A stretch of 64,000 bases of DNA from Candidatus Eiseniibacteriota bacterium (GCA_963762255.1 CAVXKA010000002.1:736001-800000), one strand, 5' to 3'; counted from the stretch's first letter, positions 51,018 to 62,298 are shown. Numbers and translations are program-made. The notes: generated by a model not told the origin, from the letters alone.

Positions 51018-52133
51018 ATGATTGTCGGAGTGCCTAAGGAGATCAAAGCGGACGAGAACCGGGTGGCCCTACTCCCCGTGGGAGCGGAGCAGCTCATCGC
51101 CCGCGGTCACAGGGTGCTGGTGGAGACGCAGGCCGGCGTGGGGAGCGGCTTCTCCGACGAGGACTACAAGGCCGCCGGCGCGGAGATCGTAAAGACCGCG
51201 GCCGAGGTGTACCAGAAGGCCGAGATGATCGTGAAGGTGAAGGAGCCGCTTGCCGCGGAGTACAAGCTCCTGCGCGACGGCCAGATCGTCTTCACCTATT
51301 TCCACTTCGCGGCGGGCGAGGAACTCACCAAGGCCGTGCGCGATTCGAAGTGCGTGGCCATCGCCTACGAGACCGTGCAGCTTCCGAGCATGGAACTTCC
51401 GCTCCTCACGCCCATGAGCGAGGTCGCGGGCCGCATGGCCATCCAGGAGGGGGCGGTGTTCCTCGAGTACCGACGTGGCGGGCGCGGCGTGCTACTCGGC
51501 GGCGTCCCCGGAGTGCTCCCCGCTGCGGTGACTATTCTCGGCGGCGGCGTGGTCGGCACTAATGCAGCCAAGATGGCGGCAGGGCTGGGCGCCGACGTGA
51601 TCATCCTCGACATCAACCTCGAGAGGCTACGCCACCTCGACGACGTCATGCCCAAGAACGTGCGCACGATGATGTCGAACCCGGCCAACATCCGCGAATG
51701 CATCTCCCGCTCCGACCTCGTGGTGGGCGCGGTGCTCATCCCCGGCGGACGGGCGCCGTGGCTCGTGACCAAGGACATGCTCAAGCTCATGAAGCAGCGG
51801 GCGGTGATCGTGGACGTGGCGGTGGATCAGGGCGGGTGCATCGAGACCACCAGGGCCACCTACCATCACGACCCGGTGTACACGGTGGACGGCGTGGTCC
51901 ACTACTGCGTGGCCAACATGCCGGGCGCCGTACCCCACACGAGCACGCTGGCGCTGACCAATGCCACCCTCCCCTACGCGCTCAAGCTGGCCGATCTTGG
52001 CTGGAAGGACGCGGTGCGCAAGAACGCTGATCTCGCGCTGGGAGTGAACATGGTGGGTGGGGAGGTCACCTACGAGGCGGTGGCGCAGGCCTTCAAGCTG
52101 CCCTACACGCCGCTCACGCAAGTGCTGAACTAG
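51018..52133 (+). CDS. ald: Alanine dehydrogenase
   Basis: [38 protein letters not shown] and VANMPGAV. Confidence 0.97.
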
Positions 52134-52577: not shown

Positions 52578-53216
52578 ATGAGCAAAGTATTCGTGAACAT
52601 CGGGCTTAGCCTTGACGGCTACATGACACCGGAAGGCATGACTCTGGAAAATTGGGATACGCCTGATCACAAGGACTGGGGAGTAAAGTGGGGTGCACTG
52701 ATGGGTTGGATTCACAATCTGCAGTATTTCCGCGAGAACCTCAAGCTCGGACCAGGGGGACAGACCGGGCCGGTCAATGACATGCTTCGTCACACCACAG
52801 AGCGCATCGGCGCAAACATTATGGGCAAGCGAATGTTCGACGTTGGCGAACGCGCATGGCCTGAGGAGGCCCCGTTTCATACTCCTGTTTATGTTCTTAC
52901 CCATGAGAAGCGCGAACCTTGGATTCGGCCGGGTGGGACGACGTTCGACTTCGTAAACGATGGCCCGGAAAGTGCTCTTGAGCAGGCCATGGAGTCTGCG
53001 GGCGGTCGCGATATTCGCATCGCCGGCGGCGCGGATGTGATCCAGCAGTACCTGAACCTGGGCGTCATCGACGAGCTGGAAATCGCCCTGGCGCCCGTGG
53101 TGTTCGGCGGTGGGAGACGACTCTTCGAAAACCTGCGCGAGCCGATGCCGCAGTTTCGAATTGACCAAGTGCTCCATGGTCCGGCAGCTACCCACTTGCG
53201 CTATGTGCGTGAGTAA
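52578..53216 (+). CDS. Dihydrofolate reductase / RibD C-terminal family protein
   Basis: SLDGY, IMGKRMF, PVYVLTH, IAGGA, IDEL...AP...GGGRRLF. Confidence 0.9.
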   Translation: MSKVFVNIGLSLDGYMTPEGMTLENWDTPDHKDWGVKWGALMGWIHNLQYFRENLKLGPGGQTGPVNDMLRHTTERIGANIMGKRMFDVGERAWPEEAPFHTPVYVLTHEKREPWIRPGGTTFDFVNDGPESALEQAMESAGGRDIRIAGGADVIQQYLNLGVIDELEIALAPVVFGGGRRLFENLREPMPQFRIDQVLHGPAATHLRYVRE

Positions 53217-53221
53217 GGTCG

Positions 53222-53285
53222 GCCTAACAACCGGTTGCAGCGGACGGTCCGCTGCGCGGCCCGCCGCTGAACCGGAGCGTTGCCG
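53222..53285 (+). other. attC recombination site (64 bp)
   Basis: RYYYAAC (GCCTAAC)...CGGTTGCAGCGG...CCGCTGAACCG...GTT, an imperfect inverted repeat with one extrahelical base. Confidence 0.88.
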
Positions 53286-53325
53286 GGCTCTTGGGGACAG
53301 CGTTGGGTTGAGAGATAGTGTGCCC

Positions 53326-53541
53326 GTGAGTGATCCTGCAGTCGACATCAGCAGTCTGACCCCAGAGCAGAAGCTCCGCCTGATCGAGGAGCTCTGGGAT
53401 CGTCTGTCTGATGACGAGATCCCCATTACTGAGGCTCAGAGGCAGGAACTGGAGCGCAGGCTTGCTGACCTGGAGAGCAACCCCGACAAAGTCGTCCCTT
53501 GGGATGAAGTCCGGCGCCGTCTCCAGGACCGCATCACGTAA
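53326..53541 (+). CDS. Putative addiction module antitoxin (TIGR02574-like)
   Basis: LTPEQKLRLIEELWDRL....TEAQRQELERRL.......VPWDEV. Confidence 0.85.
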   Translation: MSDPAVDISSLTPEQKLRLIEELWDRLSDDEIPITEAQRQELERRLADLESNPDKVVPWDEVRRRLQDRIT

Positions 53542-53717
53542 CGCTTGTATTCACTGAGACCGCACAGGTAGAGACGGAAGCTGCGACTGCGTGGTACGAA
53601 GCGCAACGATCGAGGCTCGGAGTGGAATTCCTCGCCGCTCTCGACGCCGCGATTGAAGCAGTCCGCATGCATCCAGAGGCCTATCCGGTTGCACTTCGGG
53701 ATATTCGAATGGCCTGA
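53538..53717 (+). pseudogene. Truncated ParE/RelE toxin remnant
   Basis: VTLVFTETAQVETEAATAWYEAQRSRLGVEFLAALDAAIEAVRMHPEAYP...IRMA*. GTA sits where a coupled GTG start is expected, and the frame stops after 59 codons. Confidence 0.75.
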
Positions 53718-53736
53718 AGCAGCGCGGCGCCGCGCC

Positions 53737-53756
53737 GTGCTCACCCGGGTGATCAC
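53737..53756. repeat. GTGCTCACCCGGGTGATCAC (dispersed repeat, copy 3)
   Basis: One mismatch to copy 1; overlaps the aminotransferase stop codon. Confidence 0.8.
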
Positions 53757-54979
53757 GACACCTCGGCGAGCGCCTCCCCCATCGTCACAGCCGCCTCGTC
53801 GAGCACCTCTTCCGGCGTGTTGAGCGGCGGCGCCAACCGCACCACGTTGTCGTGGTGCAGCGTCCAGCCCAACAACAGTCCGCGGTCGCGACACGCGCTG
53901 GTGAACGCGCTCGTGAGCGCCGCCGACGCGAACTCGATCCCGATGAAGAGCCCGAGCCCGCGCACCTCGCGCACACCGGGCCGCGCGCCAAGCGCTTCTC
54001 GCAGCCGCGCCGCGAACCGCGCACCCACGCGCTCCGACCGCTCGACCAGCCCGTCGCGCCGCATCACGCGCAGCGCCGCGCGCCCCGCCGCGCACGACAC
54101 CGGATGCCCGCCGAAGGTGGTCACGTGCGAGAGCGGCGGATCATGGGTCAGGGTCTCCATCAACGCGCTCGCTCCGGCGAACGCGCCCAACGGATAGCCT
54201 CCCCCCAACGCTTTCGCGAGCACGATCACGTCGGGCACGACTCCCCAGCGCTCGCAGGCGAACAACCGTCCGGTCCGCCCGAACCCGGTCATGACTTCGT
54301 CCAGGATGAGGAGCGCCCCCACCTCGCGGCAGCGCCGGGCCAACGCAGGGAGAAAGTCGCTGGGGGGAATGCAGACGCCCCCTTCGCCCTGAACCGGCTC
54401 CACGATGACCCCGGCCACGCTGTCATCCAGAGCCCCCAAGGCCACCACATCCCCGAACGGCAGCAGCCTCACAGGGCCGAGAAGCGGCTTGAAGGGATCC
54501 TGGTAGACCGCACTCCCGGCGACGCTTAGCGCGCCGAATGTGTCGCCGTGATACGCCCCGCTGAAGGCGACGAATCCCGCGCGCCCGGTGGCCTTGCGGG
54601 CGAGCTTGAGCGCCCCCTCCACCGCCTCGGCGCCGCTGTTCACGAAGAACACGCGGTCGATCGGCGCGGGCAGCACCTCGGCCAGCTCCGCCGCGTAGAG
54701 CGCCTGCTCCTCCAGCACGTACTCGCCGTACACCATCACGTGGTGATAGCGCCGATTCTGTCGCTCCACCGCGGCGACCACTTCCGGGTGCGTGTGACCG
54801 ATGTTGGCCACTGCGATCCCGGCCAGCAGATCCAGGTAGCGATGGCCGTCGGGGGTGTGGATGTAGGGGCCCTCGGCGCGGTCCACCACGATGCCGATGG
54901 GGCCCGCCGAGGTCCACGCGAGATGCTCCGCGAAGGCCCGCCCCCAGCTCTCGAAATCGCTTGAACTTGAATCGGCCAT
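53753..54979 (-). CDS. Class III PLP aminotransferase (acetylornithine aminotransferase-like)
   Basis: YLDLLAGIAV..IGH, NSGAEAVEGA, YHGDT, EPVQGEGG, DEVMTGFGRTG, LAKALGGG and TTFGGHP. Confidence 0.93.
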   Translation of the reverse strand: MADSSSSDFESWGRAFAEHLAWTSAGPIGIVVDRAEGPYIHTPDGHRYLDLLAGIAVANIGHTHPEVVAAVERQNRRYHHVMVYGEYVLEEQALYAAELAEVLPAPIDRVFFVNSGAEAVEGALKLARKATGRAGFVAFSGAYHGDTFGALSVAGSAVYQDPFKPLLGPVRLLPFGDVVALGALDDSVAGVIVEPVQGEGGVCIPPSDFLPALARRCREVGALLILDEVMTGFGRTGRLFACERWGVVPDVIVLAKALGGGYPLGAFAGASALMETLTHDPPLSHVTTFGGHPVSCAAGRAALRVMRRDGLVERSERVGARFAARLREALGARPGVREVRGLGLFIGIEFASAALTSAFTSACRDRGLLLGWTLHHDNVVRLAPPLNTPEEVLDEAAVTMGEALAEVS

Positions 54980-55018
54980 GTGGATTTCCGATCGATGGTT
55001 ACAGAGAGGCCAGCTCAG

Positions 55019-56332
55019 TCAGCAGCGGCCGCGCCGCAGCAACTCCGCCAAGCCCGAACGCCCATCCGCTCGCCATCCCGCGGGAGGATCCTGGATGGTC
55101 TCGAGCGGAGCTGCGAAGGCCACGCCCGCATCACGCGCCGCTTCCGTGTACGTCCCCGCCCGATTGCCGAGGCAAGCGTAACCGATCCCCTGCACCTCGT
55201 CGCGGTGCGCCGCGAGAAGCTCGCTCAGCTCGCGCGCCCGTGGAAGCGCCGTCACCCGAACCACGCGCGCCGCAGGGCCCACCTCCAGGGAAAGCGCGTC
55301 ACCCCAGACCACGCCCCACGCCGGCAGCGCCGGAGCGATGATCCCACGACGCCGACCATCCCCCATCTCGTAGCGCGCGCGATGGGCAAGGATCGCCGAT
55401 GTCTGCGCGGCGGTGCGTGGCGGCGAAGGCCACCGCCGCTCCCACCCCGCGAGCGCCTCAGCAAGCCGCGCCGCAAATCGCCCCCGCTCCCCCGCCACGA
55501 ACAGGATGCGCGGTGAGAGGCACCCGGCCTGCTCCCAGAGCACGATCTCGCGCGCGATGCGCGACCACCACGAAGCAGGCGCATCCCGCCAGCCGCCTCC
55601 CACGATGCCGATCGAGATGCGCGGGCCGTATACGAGGAGAGGTAGAGGCTCATCGCTCGACCGCTGCGCGACCCGCGCGGTCACGGATCGCACCATCTCG
55701 GCGCCGCCGCTGGCCACCACGAGGCCGGCCTTCGCAAAGATCTCTCGCTCGACGGCCTCGTCGCCCCCCTTCCACTGCGCCACCGCAACCGCGCGGCCGA
55801 GCGCCGGCGCGGCACGATCGAGGCTCTCCTTGAAGAGACGCGCGGTGACAGGCTCCTCCGCCGCCGGCTTGAGTATCACCGCGCTTCGCGCAAGCAGCGC
55901 CTCCAACGCCGCGGGTATTGCGAGCCCGGCCACGTTGCCGGCCAGGATCTGCGCCACGACCTCGGGGCCGCGCGGGGCGGGACCCCGTGCCGTGCGGCGT
56001 CCCGCGACGGCGGCGGCGCGCCGGCCTGCGGGCCCGACCGGCGCCCCCGCCTCCACCCGCGCGTCCGCGAGCCAGCGCGCAAGCTTCACGCGCCCGTGCG
56101 CCGCGATCATGCGCCTAAGCCCAAACGCGAGCATCGCCTCACTCATGCCGGTGTCGGCCGCGAGTTCCGCGGCCGCGCGGGCGCCAAGACCTGCCGGTCC
56201 CTTCCACAACGTCAGCGCTGCGCCGAGTCCCACCAGCAACTCGTCATCGCTCATCACGGCCAACTCGTGCGCGGCCGCGCGCAGGCGCGCGAACACCGCT
56301 TCACCCGGCACGTACGAGGGCGGCTTCTTCAT
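55019..56332 (-). CDS. LuxC-like acyl-CoA/acyl-protein reductase
   Basis: ILAGNV, VILKP, WKGG, SGG, YGPRIS and EQAGCLSP (catalytic Cys context). Confidence 0.8.
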   Translation of the reverse strand: MKKPPSYVPGEAVFARLRAAAHELAVMSDDELLVGLGAALTLWKGPAGLGARAAAELAADTGMSEAMLAFGLRRMIAAHGRVKLARWLADARVEAGAPVGPAGRRAAAVAGRRTARGPAPRGPEVVAQILAGNVAGLAIPAALEALLARSAVILKPAAEEPVTARLFKESLDRAAPALGRAVAVAQWKGGDEAVEREIFAKAGLVVASGGAEMVRSVTARVAQRSSDEPLPLLVYGPRISIGIVGGGWRDAPASWWSRIAREIVLWEQAGCLSPRILFVAGERGRFAARLAEALAGWERRWPSPPRTAAQTSAILAHRARYEMGDGRRRGIIAPALPAWGVVWGDALSLEVGPAARVVRVTALPRARELSELLAAHRDEVQGIGYACLGNRAGTYTEAARDAGVAFAAPLETIQDPPAGWRADGRSGLAELLRRGRC

Positions 56333-57417
56333 CCGCCCCCCAAGAGCTCCTCGGTGACGAGCGAGCAGCCGCGCAGCTCGGCGTCCCGCGCGCGCCCGCG
56401 TAGGAGGAACCCTCCCTCGCGCATCGCGCCAAGGTCTTCGGTCACGATCGCGCTCACCGTCCAGGCGTTGGCCAGATCGACGTGCGCCAAGAGCCCGTCA
56501 ACACCCGCCGGCGCGGCACCGAGCGTCGCGGGATCGAGCACGCGCGTGCGTACCCAGTGCGGGCTCTCGTAGATCCGTTCGCCCGGCCCCGGCAGGCCGG
56601 CGACGCAACAGGCCAGCGTGGATTCGTAGAACTGCGAGCACATCTCGGTCATCCCATACTCCCCCACGACGTGCGTCAAGGGCACGCCCAGGCGCTCTTC
56701 GTAGAGGCGCATCAGTTCGTCACGCGAGATCTCGCGCCCGCGCCCCTTGGTTCCGCCGGTGTCCATGACGCGGCTTCCCGCGGGGAGCGAGAACCGCTCG
56801 CCGCGCGGAACGAGTTCATCGAGAACATGGGCGAATGCGAACGCGGTGCCGAGGAGAAGCACGGGCTCCTCGGCGCGGACCACATCCCGAAGCGCCGCCA
56901 GCAACCCGTCAAGATCGGCCGTGGGAGGTTCGAAGAACCGCCCGCTTCCCGCCGCACCGAAGCGCTCCAGCGCGCGCTCGACCATGTAGGAAAGCGAACT
57001 GTCCGGGAGCGCGGCCTCGCTGGGGATCAACGACAGGATGCGCATGCGCCCGCGATCGGGAAGGACGTGGCGGCGGAACGGCTCCTCCCATGCCGCCTCG
57101 TAGAGCGAGAGATCGGGGAGATGATGACGGCCTCGCCGATCCACCCCCGTCGTGGTCCCGCTGGTCGCGAAGACGCGAGCGGCGGGCGCGGTGGAGAGCA
57201 CCGCTTCCTTGAAGGCCGCGGTGGGGACGGCGGGGATGTCCTCCCACGTGCGAACGCGCTCCGGGATCAGGCCTCGCGACCTGCACAGTCGCCGGTACGG
57301 CTCGTTCTGCGCGAACTGGTACGCGAAGACCTCCAGTGCCACCGAATCGAAGTCGTCGCCGGAAGGATCGCGGATGAAGTGAAGCGCGCGCTCCACCGCA
57401 TCGGGGCGCCCGATCAT
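56329..57417 (-). CDS. LuxE-like acyl-protein synthetase
   Basis: F.YQ...N..YR, IPAVP..AFK, TSGTT, SSL.YM, TGGTKG, EYGMTE, TEDLG and GR....ELRGCS (acylated Cys context). Confidence 0.88.
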   Translation of the reverse strand: MIGRPDAVERALHFIRDPSGDDFDSVALEVFAYQFAQNEPYRRLCRSRGLIPERVRTWEDIPAVPTAAFKEAVLSTAPAARVFATSGTTTGVDRRGRHHLPDLSLYEAAWEEPFRRHVLPDRGRMRILSLIPSEAALPDSSLSYMVERALERFGAAGSGRFFEPPTADLDGLLAALRDVVRAEEPVLLLGTAFAFAHVLDELVPRGERFSLPAGSRVMDTGGTKGRGREISRDELMRLYEERLGVPLTHVVGEYGMTEMCSQFYESTLACCVAGLPGPGERIYESPHWVRTRVLDPATLGAAPAGVDGLLAHVDLANAWTVSAIVTEDLGAMREGGFLLRGRARDAELRGCSLVTEELLGGG

Positions 57418-60071
57418 CGCGCCAGCACCAGCTTGTGCGTGCGCTCTTCCCCCATCGCCTCCAGACGGTAGAAGTACACCCCCACGGCCACCGCTTCGCC
57501 GCGCTCGTTCCGGCCGTCCCAGACTGCTTCGTGCGAGCCGGCGGCGAAGACGCCGTCGACGACCGTGCGAACGGCGCGCCCGGATGCGTCAAAGACTCGC
57601 AACGTCGCCCGACCCGGCCGAGGGAGCGTGAAGGAGATGCGCGACGCGGCGCGGAATGGATTCGGCCGGCTCGCGGCAAGAGCCAAGGCCGCCCCCAGCG
57701 CATCGGCGGCGCCAACCTCCACGGGTCCGTACCACGTGACGCCCCCCGTGCGCGTCAGCTCGGCCAGCCAGTAGCGCAGCCGCCCCTCCGGGGCGCGATC
57801 GTCCACGAACGCGTACGCCGAGGCTCCGCGCAACGGCGCCTCGGTGAGGCGCACCCGATCGCCCGGTGCGCTCTCGCGGTACACATCGAATCCCGCGTGA
57901 TCGCCGGAGGGCTCCGCTACCTCCCAGCGCAGATCCACACCCGCGCCCGACCGCTCCGCGGTAAAGCCCAGAAGCCTGACCGACACGAAACCCGAAGCGT
58001 CCCATCGGGCGAAGTTCTGCGACGAGCCTCCCCCAGCCACTGCGAACGCGCCGCCAACGTAGACGTCCGTGCCCGAGAGCATCAGCGCGCGCACTTCGCC
58101 GTCCACCCCTTCGCCGAGCGCCTGCCACGCAACGCCGTTCCACCGAGCCACCCCGCGCGCGGAGACGCTACCGATGGCGGTGAAGTCCCCCCCCATGTAG
58201 ACGGTGTCGCCGCGGGCTGCCACCGCGCGCACGGGACGCAGCTCGAGGCCCTCGCCCAACGCGCCGGACCATGCGCCGCCGTCCCACGCCGCGATCCCGT
58301 TCGCCGGCATACTCCCGGATCCGGTGAACGAACCTACGGCCACAATACGATCTCCTGCGGCAGCAAGACCCAGGACTTCTCCGTCGAGTCCTCCTCCGAG
58401 GGACGACCATACCGCGCCATCCCACCGTGCCACGTTGACCGCGGGGAATCCGCCCGCATTGTTGAAGAGCCCGCCGATGACCAAGCCGCCGGGAACCGTC
58501 ATCACCGCGTTCACCACGTAGGGCGGCTGGATACCTGTCCCGAGCGGTGCCCAGCGCGTGCCGTCCCACCGCGCGACCCGGTTCACCGACGAATCGCCGG
58601 CTGCGGTGAACGCGCCCGCCGCGTACAGCATGCCGTCCTCGTCCACCGCGAGCGATTGGCACCCCCCGTTGAGCCCCGGTCCCAGTGGATGCCAGGCACC
58701 TCCGTCCCACTTCGCGATGTTGAGAGTGGAGATCTCTCCCGCCATCGAGAAGCTTCCTCCGGCATAGATCGCTGCGGGGGTCACGGCGAGGCAGCGCACC
58801 GAGCCGTCGAGGCCGCTGCCCAAGGCGCTCCATCGCTCCCCATCCCAGAACGCGACGCTGCTCGCGATGACACCGCCCGCCACGGAGAAATCGCCGGCGA
58901 TGAAGACGCCGCCCCATCCCTGCACCACCGCGTTGACCGCGCCCTCGATGCCGGCGCCCAGAGCTTCCCAATTTGTGCTGTCCCAGACCGCGATCCCATG
59001 TGCGACGCGCTCCCCGGCGGAGTCGAAATCTCCGCCGGCACAGAGCCGACCTTCCGCGTCTGAGGCAAGGGCACGCACGACACCGTCGACTCCTTGCCCG
59101 ACCGGGGAGTACGTGCTCCCGTCCCACCGCGCCAGGTGGGCGACATCGTTGCCGGCGATGCCGGTGAACGACCCGGCAAGATAAAGGGATCCTCCCATTT
59201 CCATCATCGCCCGAACCACGCCGTTCGCACCGCCGCCCGAGGCGGCGTCCAACACGGAGCCGTCCCAACGTGCCAGGTACAGAGCGTCGGCGTCCCCAAC
59301 GTGGGTGAACGTCCCCCCGAGGAATAGCGCGCCCTGGTGCGCGGCGATCGCGTACACGGCCCCGTCGGTGCCCGAGCCCACACTCGACCACGCCGCCCCA
59401 TCCCACTGCGCCACGCAAGGGGCGGAGACTCCGCCGGCCTCGTCAAAGCTTCCCCCCACTACGACCCGACCGTCGAAGGCGGCGATGGCGTACACAGCGG
59501 CGGCGTCGCCTGGACTGTCGACACCCGTCCCCAACGCGGACCATGCGACGCCGTCCCATCGCGCAATCCGAGAGGCCGGTGTCGCCCCTACGCTATTGAA
59601 CTGCCCGCCCACGTAGAGTTGGCCGTCGATTGCGGCCAGCGCGTTCACTACGTAGTTAGGTCCGGCGCCCAGAGTCGACAATGAGGAGCCGTTCCAGAGC
59701 ACGAGATTGACGGCATCGATCTCTCCCGCTCGGGTGAAGAACCCGCCGATGGCGAGTCCTTGCGCCGTGACGGCCAGGGCATTCACGGTGGGGTGGACGG
59801 TCCCGTTGGTGCCGAGATGGGCCGGATCGCTCCAGCTCCGCCCATCCCAACAGGCGAACCCATTCGCCGCGACCCCTCCCGCCTGAGTGAAGTCCCCGCC
59901 GATGTAGAGTCGTCCATCGTAGAACGCGACAGCTTTCACGGTGCCGTCGACGCCGGGATAGCCGAACCGATCGTCCCAGCGCGGGTCCGTGGCTTGGGCG
60001 GCGGGAACGAAGACCCAACCGATGACGCAGAAGACAACCGGAACCCGGAGTGCAGCCAGCCGACCATGCAT
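57414..60071 (-). CDS. Secreted beta-propeller repeat protein (Rax2-like repeats) with FlgD-Ig/T9SS-like CTD
   Basis: About 13 repeats of V.A......LY.GG.F..AG......ARWDG..W..LG.G; PNPF...WDGR...GVYFYRL...KLVLAR. Confidence 0.85.
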   Translation of the reverse strand: MHGRLAALRVPVVFCVIGWVFVPAAQATDPRWDDRFGYPGVDGTVKAVAFYDGRLYIGGDFTQAGGVAANGFACWDGRSWSDPAHLGTNGTVHPTVNALAVTAQGLAIGGFFTRAGEIDAVNLVLWNGSSLSTLGAGPNYVVNALAAIDGQLYVGGQFNSVGATPASRIARWDGVAWSALGTGVDSPGDAAAVYAIAAFDGRVVVGGSFDEAGGVSAPCVAQWDGAAWSSVGSGTDGAVYAIAAHQGALFLGGTFTHVGDADALYLARWDGSVLDAASGGGANGVVRAMMEMGGSLYLAGSFTGIAGNDVAHLARWDGSTYSPVGQGVDGVVRALASDAEGRLCAGGDFDSAGERVAHGIAVWDSTNWEALGAGIEGAVNAVVQGWGGVFIAGDFSVAGGVIASSVAFWDGERWSALGSGLDGSVRCLAVTPAAIYAGGSFSMAGEISTLNIAKWDGGAWHPLGPGLNGGCQSLAVDEDGMLYAAGAFTAAGDSSVNRVARWDGTRWAPLGTGIQPPYVVNAVMTVPGGLVIGGLFNNAGGFPAVNVARWDGAVWSSLGGGLDGEVLGLAAAGDRIVAVGSFTGSGSMPANGIAAWDGGAWSGALGEGLELRPVRAVAARGDTVYMGGDFTAIGSVSARGVARWNGVAWQALGEGVDGEVRALMLSGTDVYVGGAFAVAGGGSSQNFARWDASGFVSVRLLGFTAERSGAGVDLRWEVAEPSGDHAGFDVYRESAPGDRVRLTEAPLRGASAYAFVDDRAPEGRLRYWLAELTRTGGVTWYGPVEVGAADALGAALALAASRPNPFRAASRISFTLPRPGRATLRVFDASGRAVRTVVDGVFAAGSHEAVWDGRNERGEAVAVGVYFYRLEAMGEERTHKLVLAR

Positions 60072-60203
60072 GACTCAAGTCCCCATGTGTAAGCCCGTGA
60101 CCGAGAATATAGCGCCAAGGCGGGAGACGCGCAGAGTAAACCGGACAAACTTACTCGTATTTGTCTCGTTTTCATCGATCCCCTTTATCCCGAGAATGGA
60201 TGG

Positions 60204-60231
60204 TCGACAACCCGTCTCCCATGGATAGAAT
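60204..60231 (+). promoter_or_regulatory. Putative sigma70 promoter for the cytochrome gene
   Basis: TCGACA-16 bp-TAGAAT, which would start transcription near 60238. Confidence 0.45.
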
Positions 60232-60247
60232 CCGCCACAGTTGATGA

Positions 60248-60328
60248 CAGCGAGGCAAGCAACCCAGGCTCAACGGTCTGGCGCAAAGATCCGGTGGTTC
60301 CACGGCCCTGCGACCGCCGGATGACAAG
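60248..60328 (+). ncRNA. Candidate cyclic-dinucleotide (GEMM-I-like) riboswitch variant
   Basis: GCAA-stem(CCAGGC/GTCTGG)-CGCAAAG-stem(ATCCGGTGGT/ACCGCCGGAT)-GAC in the 5' UTR. It lacks the canonical GNRA loop and receptor. Confidence 0.4.
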
Positions 60329-60345
60329 TGGATAAGGAGTGTGGG

Positions 60346-62298
60346 ATGAAGAGCTTCCCGTTCAAAGCCTGGATTTTGCCCCTGATCGTCGCCGCGACGG
60401 TCGCCGCCGGCGCCGTTCAAGGCCTCGCGCAGGAAGGGGCGGCGATCAGTAACGGCGACTGCGCCATGTGCCACAACGGAGACGACGCGAGCATTCCCGC
60501 CGTCACCGAAGCGTCCCTGAGCCAATCCTCGCACGCCGGCTTGAGCTGCATGGACTGCCACGCGGACATCGCCGAGATCCCCCACGCCGAGAAACTCGCG
60601 CGCGTTCAGTGCGGCACGTGTCACTCCAGCGAGAGCGAGACCTACACGCAGCACGGTCGCGGGATCGTCGGCACGACCGAGGATCTCCCCGAATGCCAGG
60701 ACTGCCACGGCTCACACAATATTCTTCCGTCCTCCGACAACCATTCGCAAGTCCACCCGACCAACCTGTCGCAGACGTGCGCCGTCTGTCACGCTAATCT
60801 GGACCTGGCCAAGAAGCACGACATCAAGCTCAAGCGTGCGGTGGCCGTTTACGAAGCGAGCGTTCACGGTCGGGCAGCCATGGGCGGCATCTACACCGCC
60901 GCCACCTGTACGGACTGCCACTCCACCGAGGGCACCGCCCATCGGATCCTCGGCCCCGGCGACGCCACATCCAGCATCAATCACTTCAACATCCCCAAGA
61001 CCTGCGGCAAGTGCCACCGAGGCATCGAGCAGGACTACGAGGAAGGTATCCACGGGCAGCTCGCCGCTCGCGGCGAGACCGACACGCCGGTATGCACGAC
61101 CTGCCACGGCGAGCATGGGATTCTCGCCACCGACGATCCGCGGTCCAATGTGAGCCCCACGCTCGTTGCCGAGGCAACCTGCGCGCCCTGCCATGAGTCG
61201 GCTCAGCTCAACGAGAAGTACGGTATTCCCGCCGGCCGCCTGGCCTCGTTCGTGGACTCCTATCACGGGTTGAAGAGCCGGTCCGGCGACCCCACCGTGG
61301 CCAACTGCGCGAGCTGCCATGGCGCTCATCGGATCCTGCCCAGCGCGAACCCGCAGTCGTCAATCTATCCCGCCAACCTCCAGAAGACCTGCGGCCATTG
61401 CCACCCGAACATCAGCACGCAACTTGCCCAAACCCAGATCCACAGCGCCAACGCGGGGCTGCAAACCGGGTGGTCGCGCTTCTTTGCGGTCGTGTACACG
61501 ATCCTCATCATCGCCGTGATCGGCGGCATGCTGGTCTACGTCCTGATCGACCTGCGCGCCCGGTACCGCGAAATGCTCGCCCGCCCGCAGATCCGACGCA
61601 TGGACACCAACGCGATCCTTCAGCACAGCGTGCTGACGGCCGCCTTCATCGTCCTCGTGGTCACCGGCTTCGCGCTCCGTTACTCGGAGGCCTGGATCTT
61701 CAATCACATCTTCGGCTGGGACGGCGGATTCCGGGTACGGGGCATCATCCACAGGTCGGCGGCGGTGTTGCTGGTGCTCGGCTCGCTCTGGCATCTGCTC
61801 TATCTGCGCACCCACAACGGTCGCAAGTTCGGCCGGGGAATGCTGCCGAGTCTGGAGGACGCGAAACAGCTCCTGCACATGGTCCAGTTCAACCTTGGGC
61901 GGCGCAAGGATCATCCGCACTTCGATCGCTTCACCTACGTGGAGAAGGCGGAGTACTGGGCGCTGATCTGGGGCACCGTGGTGATGGCCATCACCGGTTT
62001 CTTCCTCTGGTTCGACAACCTGGCGGTGAGCATCTTCCACAAGGGATTCCTGGACGTGATGCTAGTGATTCACTTCTACGAGGCGTGGCTGGCCACGCTG
62101 GCGATCGCCCTCTGGCATTTCTACTTCACCGTGTTCCGGCCGGGCGCGTATCCGGGGAACCCTGCCTGGGTCACGGGTAAGATGCCGGCGGATCTCTATC
62201 ACGACGAGCATCCCGCGGACACGTCGGCGCCGATGGCCGAACCGGCGCAGGAGCTCTATCCGGATCGCGCGGACGCCGCGGGGAAGAAGCAGGCCTAG
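60346..62298 (+). CDS. Multiheme cytochrome c (11 CxxCH) fused to a cytochrome b/FdnI-like membrane domain (CbcL-like)
   Basis: Signal peptide; 11 CxxCH motifs counted by hand; TM region with LQH, IIHR, EKAEYWAL.WG, IHFYEAWLA and WHFY. Confidence 0.9.
   Translation: MKSFPFKAWILPLIVAATVAAGAVQGLAQEGAAISNGDCAMCHNGDDASIPAVTEASLSQSSHAGLSCMDCHADIAEIPHAEKLARVQCGTCHSSESETYTQHGRGIVGTTEDLPECQDCHGSHNILPSSDNHSQVHPTNLSQTCAVCHANLDLAKKHDIKLKRAVAVYEASVHGRAAMGGIYTAATCTDCHSTEGTAHRILGPGDATSSINHFNIPKTCGKCHRGIEQDYEEGIHGQLAARGETDTPVCTTCHGEHGILATDDPRSNVSPTLVAEATCAPCHESAQLNEKYGIPAGRLASFVDSYHGLKSRSGDPTVANCASCHGAHRILPSANPQSSIYPANLQKTCGHCHPNISTQLAQTQIHSANAGLQTGWSRFFAVVYTILIIAVIGGMLVYVLIDLRARYREMLARPQIRRMDTNAILQHSVLTAAFIVLVVTGFALRYSEAWIFNHIFGWDGGFRVRGIIHRSAAVLLVLGSLWHLLYLRTHNGRKFGRGMLPSLEDAKQLLHMVQFNLGRRKDHPHFDRFTYVEKAEYWALIWGTVVMAITGFFLWFDNLAVSIFHKGFLDVMLVIHFYEAWLATLAIALWHFYFTVFRPGAYPGNPAWVTGKMPADLYHDEHPADTSAPMAEPAQELYPDRADAAGKKQA

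Follow-up and report, generated by a model that had tools for sequence, protein, structure and literature searches.

Introduction

Queuosine synthesis is taught as a single fixed pathway of FolE, QueD, QueE, QueC, QueF, Tgt, QueA and QueG/H, and the genome-based distinction between 'de novo' synthesis and 'salvage' depends on QueC (preQ0 synthase) and QueF (preQ0 reductase), which lead from 7-carboxy-7-deazaguanine (CDG) through the nitrile preQ0 to 7-aminomethyl-7-deazaguanine (preQ1). One account likewise describes the canonical de novo pathway as requiring QueD, QueE, QueC and QueF (PMC11130926). Here, we describe a cluster of three genes in a 64,000-nucleotide stretch of DNA of Candidatus Eiseniibacteriota bacterium (GCA_963762255.1 CAVXKA010000002.1:736001-800000; referred to as the window), encoding a LuxE-like acid-activating enzyme, a LuxC-like thioester reductase and a class III aminotransferase termed P0003. 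Based on comparative genomics, the trio would constitute a QueC/QueF-independent, nitrile-free preQ1 route that proceeds from CDG via 7-formyl-7-deazaguanine to preQ1, a proposal that we place at a probability of roughly 0.7, because the pathway gap in this genome, the exclusion with QueC and QueF and the que-gene neighbourhood of the module all point to CDG.

In the lux systems the C-terminal cysteine of LuxE serves as the acyl carrier, and in luminous bacteria the substrate of LuxE and LuxC is myristic acid. When compared to the LuxC-LuxE fatty acid reductase of Photobacterium phosphoreum (PDB 7xc6), the module is alike in both folds and in the cysteine relay, and the genes are likewise adjacent or overlapping, with LuxE::LuxC fusions present among the module's relatives. 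Unlike the lux system, however, the module includes an aminotransferase, has no luxAB or luxD nearby, scores far too low against the corresponding equivalog models and follows queuosine genes instead of light production, while its proposed substrate is a polar purine acid and not a fatty acid.

The closest characterised amine-forming analogue is the tambjamine pair of TabE, which is LuxC-related, and TabA. In the TabE/TabA and TamH systems (10.1101/2025.08.11.669332) and in prodigiosin PigE (NF053554), a thioester is converted to an aldehyde and then to an amine, with a class III pyridoxal 5'-phosphate (PLP) transaminase acting last; the tambjamine study reports that TabE clusters with LuxC. 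These enzymes use carrier-protein-bound fatty acyl chains inside biosynthetic clusters, whereas the present module has no carrier protein, its LuxE-like enzyme is proposed to be its own carrier, and its setting would be that of housekeeping tRNA modification. Flagellin glycosylation islands are another place where LuxC/LuxE-like genes have been described (PMC4875605). The enzymes of the module belong to known families, and it is their pathway role that would be new.

A conserved gene module for a predicted acid-to-amine conversion

The three genes are co-directional on the minus strand of the window. The LuxE-like enzyme (56329-57417; 362 amino acids), which has an acyl-protein synthetase fold and is encoded by a single-copy gene in this genome, matches PF04443 with an E-value of 7e-17 and 61.8 bits against a gathering cut-off of 24.9, its residues 23-357 covering model positions 38-388 of 391. 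Its stop codon overlaps the start codon of the LuxC-like gene in an ATGA sequence (56329-56332), and the LuxC-like reductase (55019-56332; 437 amino acids) matches PF05893 (E 4e-40; 138.2 bits versus a gathering cut-off of 21). After a 39-bp spacer (54980-55018) follows the gene of P0003 (53753-54979; 408 amino acids), a class III (omega-type) aminotransferase with a full-length match to PF00202 (Aminotran_3; E 1e-107, 360.3 bits).

The catalytic residues of all three enzymes are intact. The LuxE-like family profile aligns with LuxE of 7xc6 (chain E) over almost its full length (E 1.5e-31), which places RGCSL on KGCSL, and the cysteine of this motif, Cys351, is invariant in 12/12 and 13/13 relatives; among 12 LuxE-like relatives the TSGT, MDTGG-K-G, EYGMTE and RGCS motifs are all invariant. 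The LuxC-like protein aligns with LuxC of the same structure (chain A; E 1.9e-8) so that the cysteine of QAGCLSP falls on that of QQACFST, and its Gly270-Cys271 pair is invariant in all 76 relatives. All 54 relatives of P0003 share its PLP-binding Lys256, and Asp227 is conserved. The proteins hence fall, each with its catalytic residue, within the Pfam LuxE, LuxC and class III aminotransferase families, and outside the equivalogs of luminous bacteria, as the LuxE-like protein reaches 52.8 bits in NF052244, far under the curated cut-off of 550, and the LuxC-like protein 43.6 bits in NF052251, far under 750. There is no lux operon at the locus; the 10 neighbouring open reading frames (ORFs) scanned within ~10 kb include neither a luciferase nor a LuxD domain, the remainder of the genome not having been searched for luxAB or luxD, and the same 10 ORFs contain no acyl carrier protein, thioesterase or lipid gene. 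In public records, the 120 relatives listed go by the names 'hypothetical protein', 'acyl-protein synthetase LuxE', 'long-chain fatty acid--CoA ligase' or 'LuxE/PaaK family acyltransferase'.

Linkage of the genes was assessed in 12 loci from relatives up to class level. The LuxE-like, LuxC-like and aminotransferase genes occur together in 10 of the 12 loci, and in nine of these an orthologue of P0003 (57-86% identical) follows LuxC. In L037 the aminotransferase is only 41% identical and lies upstream of LuxE, while L035 is a 3-kb contig without the LuxE part, and L040 contains no aminotransferase in 14 kb. The three-gene set is a real, conserved module, predicted to convert acid to amine. An initial annotation, made from the window alone, had pointed out the three co-directional genes with their ATGA coupling and 39-bp gap, the intact RGCS and QAGCLSP cysteine contexts and the missing luxAB and luxD, and had proposed to follow the triad across genomes; the coordinates and Pfam matches, the alignment of both cysteines with those of 7xc6, the ORF scan within its ~10 kb and the 10 of 12 loci bear out these points.

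A LuxE::LuxC fusion was found in the same-class genome G014 (L146:12168-14741), where both Pfam domains reside in a single ORF of 857 amino acids, and it supports the prediction that the LuxE-like and LuxC-like proteins touch each other. Open frames of 679-806 amino acids across the LuxE/LuxC region suggest a possible fusion in G008, G016 and G033 as well. In six other loci (L175, L193, L194, L206, L209 and L032) 1-5 kb of other genes lie between the LuxE-like and LuxC-like genes. In addition, Flavobacteriia and other Bacteroidota (L126, L130, L132, L138, L140-L145) carry LuxE-like proteins of ~32% identity for which neither a LuxC-like gene nor an aminotransferase gene lies within 10 kb, and such lone LuxE-like genes, present in cultured Aquimarina, Tenacibaculum and Lishizhenia, were treated as a separate subfamily.

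The aminotransferase is distinct from ArgD

About six class III aminotransferase loci are present in the genome. P0003 has the same fold and PLP residues as ArgD and LysJ, and its top NCBIfam matches are ArgD/LysJ-like, every one of them under its cut-off (TIGR00707, 343.6 against 410.05; NF002874, 347.2 against 457). The ArgD candidate of the genome (C1:157532-158770), which likewise scores under the ArgD cut-offs, is flanked by argC on one side and by the carbamoyltransferase and argB ORFs on the other, as judged from the neighbouring genes by eye. An ordinary ArgD role was rejected for P0003 because this argC-argD-argF-argB operon elsewhere in the genome has its own ArgD, and P0003 lies outside it. 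The concern raised together with the initial annotation, that the aminotransferase might be the genome's ordinary ArgD without conserved linkage, is thereby answered on both counts, as ArgD belongs to a separate arg operon and the linkage of P0003 is kept.

A further class III aminotransferase (G000:C2:1421965-1423194) was matched in four pieces of differing frames and may be a frameshifted pseudogene; it resembles the lysine-6-aminotransferase-like gene at C1:62275-63621.

A gap between CDG and preQ1

The genome assembly, which consists of 3 contigs and is 93.6% complete, contains most of the queuosine genes. QueD and QueE overlap at C1:741062-742086, with QueD scoring 98.9 bits in TIGR03367 (cut-off 89.25), and QueE matching TIGR04349 as its best family with 262 bits, under the cut-off of 300. 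The genes of Tgt and QueA lie next to each other (C1:251034-253246), QueG is found at C2:884463-885563 (381 bits versus a cut-off of 200), and FolE, an ORF identified by eye, lies next to a second PTPS-family gene. Neither QueC (PF06508) nor QueF (PF14489) has a hidden Markov model match in the genome, and tblastn with the proteins of relatives returned best E-values of only 0.13 and 0.66, respectively. The genome therefore belongs to those in which QueD, QueE and Tgt are present and QueC and QueF absent. QueA and QueG require preQ1-tRNA, and the gene content predicts that CDG is made and that the preQ1-using enzymes are kept without QueC and QueF, which leaves a gap exactly between CDG and preQ1. 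These two compounds differ in having COOH or CH2NH2, matching the conversion expected from the trio.

The module and QueC/QueF are mutually exclusive

Among 41 genomes of the same class (Eisenbacteria), 22 carry the module (G000-G009, G013, G014, G016, G020, G021, G023, G027, G029, G033, G035, G038 and G040) and 13 have strong matches to QueC and/or QueF (QueC with E < 1e-59 in 11 genomes, QueF with E < 1e-19 in those 11 as well as in G018 and G034), while none have both. Of the six genomes with neither, four have Tgt without QueD, which is a salvage-like pattern, and two lack Tgt. QueD occurs in every one of the 22 module holders and Tgt in 21; G027, which lacks Tgt, is 85% complete. On a Tgt tree of 37 same-class genomes, the module label changes 4 times and the QueC/QueF label 5 times, and none of 500 shuffles gave values as low.

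The same pattern is seen outside the class. In the Myxococcota, where 121 genomes of at least 90% completeness were compared, LuxE-like genes are present in 97 and QueC in 23, with no genome having both and a single one (G048) having neither; QueF occurs in 20 genomes, 19 of which hold QueC. In 101 genomes of Gemmatimonadota, all 11 strong LuxE-like holders are without QueC, which is present in 75 genomes overall, and 15 have neither. The counts include two genomes flagged as unpublished (G258, one of the 11, and G218, one of the 75), and two QueC-positive genomes with weak LuxE-family matches (G184, 3e-27; G180, 4e-11) were set apart beforehand as probable paralogues. Five genomes from five phyla, chosen as module holders, were also examined, namely the complete chromosomes of Minicystis rosea (an isolate), a Dehalococcoidia, a Longimicrobiales and a Thermoanaerobaculia member, and a 5.2-Mb contig of a Binatia metagenome-assembled genome (MAG). 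QueC and QueF are each absent from all five, so that none have both and none have neither system, while QueE (one weak match, 4e-15) and Tgt are present in every one.

Queuosine genes adjoin the module in other lineages

The neighbourhood of the module was surveyed in 160 fetched loci, including 80 metagenome loci found with the LuxE-like profile, and no QueC or QueF was found in any of the 160. Eight immediate que neighbours were seen, compared to ~0.5 expected by chance on a rough estimate. In G014 (L146), queD lies on the opposite strand and is followed by queE, a class III aminotransferase, an HNH-endonuclease ORF and the LuxE::LuxC fusion, all co-directional. In a Gemmatimonadota MAG (L115), the queE, LuxE-like and LuxC-like genes are 1 bp apart or overlapping. 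Moreover, 7 of the 80 metagenome loci have a same-strand abutting queuosine gene, all confirmed by NCBIfam, with the orders queE-aminotransferase-LuxE-LuxC (L177, L202), LuxE...LuxC-queD (L194, L198, L206) and queG-aminotransferase-LuxE-LuxC (L170, L210). Looser cases include G097, with queE 3 kb off, and Minicystis rosea, with queD 2.5 kb off on the other strand. In these lineages the module fills the operon slot by queE or queD where queC usually sits.

The HNH-endonuclease ORF within the queE-linked operon of G014 (L146:10395-11870) is possibly a mobile insertion.

Proposed mechanism and implications

In the scheme that we infer by homology with LuxE and LuxC, all of it proposed, from the substrate and the individual reactions to the identity of cofactor and amino donor, QueD and QueE would produce CDG, and the LuxE-like enzyme would adenylate its 7-carboxylate with ATP and form a thioester on the C-terminal Cys351. 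The acyl group would then be transferred from Cys351 to Cys271 of the LuxC-like reductase, where reduction by NAD(P)H would free 7-formyl-7-deazaguanine, and the PLP aminotransferase would turn this aldehyde into preQ1. Finally, Tgt would put preQ1 into tRNA, and QueA and QueG would complete queuosine. 7-formyl-7-deazaguanine is a known compound, described as a hydrolysis product from QueF variants (PMC13740343).

The module resembles QueC and QueF in its proposed start and end compounds and in its pathway position. The folds are unrelated, however, and the proposed route would involve neither a nitrile (preQ0) nor an amide, but an aldehyde intermediate, with nitrogen brought in by transamination. 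By the usual stoichiometries, it would cost one ATP and one NAD(P)H, as opposed to two of each for QueC and QueF. No description of a LuxE/LuxC-type CDG-to-preQ1 route was found in the literature searched, which had most subscription journals outside its coverage.

It seems fairly probable that a second, unrelated and widespread preQ1 route exists, composed of a LuxE/LuxC-type carboxylate reductase and a transaminase acting via 7-formyl-7-deazaguanine and without preQ0, and that, by these samples, it is the main one for most of the Myxococcota, for a large share of the Eisenbacteria and for some of the Gemmatimonadota, Binatia, Acidobacteriota and Chloroflexota. If so, the module would be a non-orthologous replacement of QueC and QueF, whole phyla scored as incomplete for queuosine would be self-sufficient, and a function could be assigned to two large families that lack annotation. 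In addition, preQ0 would cease to be obligatory as an intermediate, a point of relevance to the DNA modifications and antibiotics that derive from it, and a carrier-free reductase for the carboxylate of a polar heteroaromatic acid would be relevant to biocatalysis.

Opposing evidence and alternative explanations

Several observations weigh against a role in queuosine synthesis. The assignment of CDG, the most likely substrate, draws on genomic context, i.e. on distribution and gene neighbourhood. In this genome the module has no que gene as a neighbour (QueG lies ~91 kb off), adjacency is the minority pattern elsewhere, with a que gene in only 9 of the 160 loci, and a search with Rfam at gathering thresholds gave no riboswitch or other match in the window or in L146, L115, L055 and L154. 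Two weak matches touch on the exclusion, a full-length QueC-like gene in a module holder (G003:C14:169887-170459; 2.5e-24) and a QueF-like match in a LuxE-like holder (G114:C4:287751-287972; 1e-16). Among the 15 Gemmatimonadota with neither system, G182 has QueE yet no QueC or LuxE-like gene, and the other 14 are unassigned by the QueE probe. This probe, the genome's own QueE protein, is insensitive, giving matches in 83/121 Myxococcota and 26/101 Gemmatimonadota and missing the QueE of known QueC holders; it was blank in 31 of the 97 module-holding Myxococcota and also in 6 of the 23 QueC holders. A check of five of those 31 genomes showed both QueD and Tgt in each. Motif inspection found no QueE beside QueD in five small loci. 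The aminotransferase is not a constant companion, being near the module in just 32/80 and 31/80 loci, many of them on short contigs; the linked aminotransferases of Eisenbacteria and Myxococcota are about 36% identical, P0003 is 40% identical to the genome's ArgD, and no relative of P0003 exceeds 44% identity in three complete chromosomes that carry LuxE/LuxC. The final step may be carried out by different transaminases in different lineages.

It is improbable, in our estimate, that the trio turns a different small carboxylate, unconnected with queuosine, into an amine, for instance by a route of the amino-acid or dicarboxylate semialdehyde type, and that the exclusion with QueC and QueF came about by shared ancestry. 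Such a role would fit P0003, which has its best curated matches in ArgD, LysJ and putrescine or gamma-aminobutyric acid (GABA) transaminases, the nearest of these families acting on amino-acid semialdehydes, and it would account for the location of the module away from que genes here and in most loci. Ancestry is also favoured by the well-supported branches of the Tgt tree, which force only 1-2 switches, the related genomes not being independent. Nevertheless, ancestry explains poorly why not one of 41 and 121 genomes holds both systems, why all 11 Gemmatimonadota holders conform, and why QueD, QueE and Tgt are retained; furthermore, the module is abutted by three different que genes in distinct arrangements, and, of the amino-acid pathways, arginine synthesis was examined and has an argC-argD-argF-argB operon of its own in this genome. 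Distinctly improbable is a 7-deazapurine set with another output, which, in loci without a linked aminotransferase, would stop at 7-formyl-7-deazaguanine or yield some other 7-substituted deazaguanine, or which would start from a salvaged precursor instead of de novo CDG. The 48/80 and 49/80 loci with no aminotransferase near LuxE/LuxC, and the three complete chromosomes with no close P0003 orthologue, would be in line with it, whereas the genome keeps QueA and QueG, both dependent on preQ1-tRNA, the linkage of the aminotransferase is tight and conserved in this lineage, and queE-aminotransferase-LuxE-LuxC operons exist.

It is very unlikely that the module converts a fatty acid via a fatty aldehyde into a fatty amine, with a LuxCE-type reductase and an omega-transaminase providing a lipid amine or anchor precursor. 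Family membership alone would suggest it, as would the myristic acid substrate of the luminous enzymes and the public labels of relatives as 'long-chain fatty acid--CoA ligase' or 'LuxE'. A LuxC-related reductase and a class III transaminase do yield dodecylamine in the biosynthesis of the tambjamine BE-18591 (10.1101/2025.08.11.669332). The low equivalog scores and the ORF scan, with its lack of acyl carrier protein, thioesterase, LuxD and lipid genes, speak against a fatty substrate, and a fatty amine would leave both the queE, queD and queG operons and the strict QueC/QueF exclusion in three phylum- or class-level samples unexplained. As to the initial annotation, its logic of acid to aldehyde to primary amine fits all the data, but the substrates it offered lack support, since there is no lipid context for a fatty or lipid one, and argB, argC and argD are present, which disfavours an ornithine/lysine-type step. 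Conversion of CDG to preQ1 accommodates the exclusion, the retained pathway genes and the que-gene operons.

Neighbouring genes

Upstream of the module lies the gene of an 885-amino-acid beta-propeller protein (57414-60071, minus strand), which contains Rax2/DUF5122 repeats, a FlgD_ig domain and a weakly matching tail of the type IX secretion system (T9SS) type. Its junction with the LuxE-like gene is also a 4-bp ATGA overlap, and the two genes are probably co-transcribed; a scan of 53300-60400 for promoters and terminators found no terminators and a single promoter-like site on the opposite strand. The initial annotation had placed the cluster behind this secreted protein, and the ATGA junction is indeed there, but the partnership is not conserved, as a full-length match is found only in the same-genus relative L034, and the gene is missing from the remaining 11 of the 12 loci, save for an 82-residue tail match in L033. 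A functional tie to the propeller/T9SS protein was ruled out given that synteny is restricted to the genus; the link is a genus-level accident of gene order and not a part of the system.

Just downstream of the module, an alanine dehydrogenase (51018-52133, plus strand) and a reductase with a RibD_C domain (52578-53216, plus strand) are encoded, and the former could regenerate the amino donor. A PF09720 'addiction module' antitoxin (53110-53541, plus strand; E 9e-19), the true start of which is probably near 53350, is followed by a short RelE/ParE-type toxin-like ORF identified by eye (about 53538-53740, plus strand). The pair and the aminotransferase gene face each other convergently, and the stretch that contains the pair is of lower G+C content (0.605-0.644). 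On the other side, divergent from the propeller gene, a 656-amino-acid protein (60328-62298, plus strand) combines a multihaem cytochrome c (Cytochrome_C7 / c3) with a cytochrome b561 (Ni_hydr_CYTB) membrane domain.

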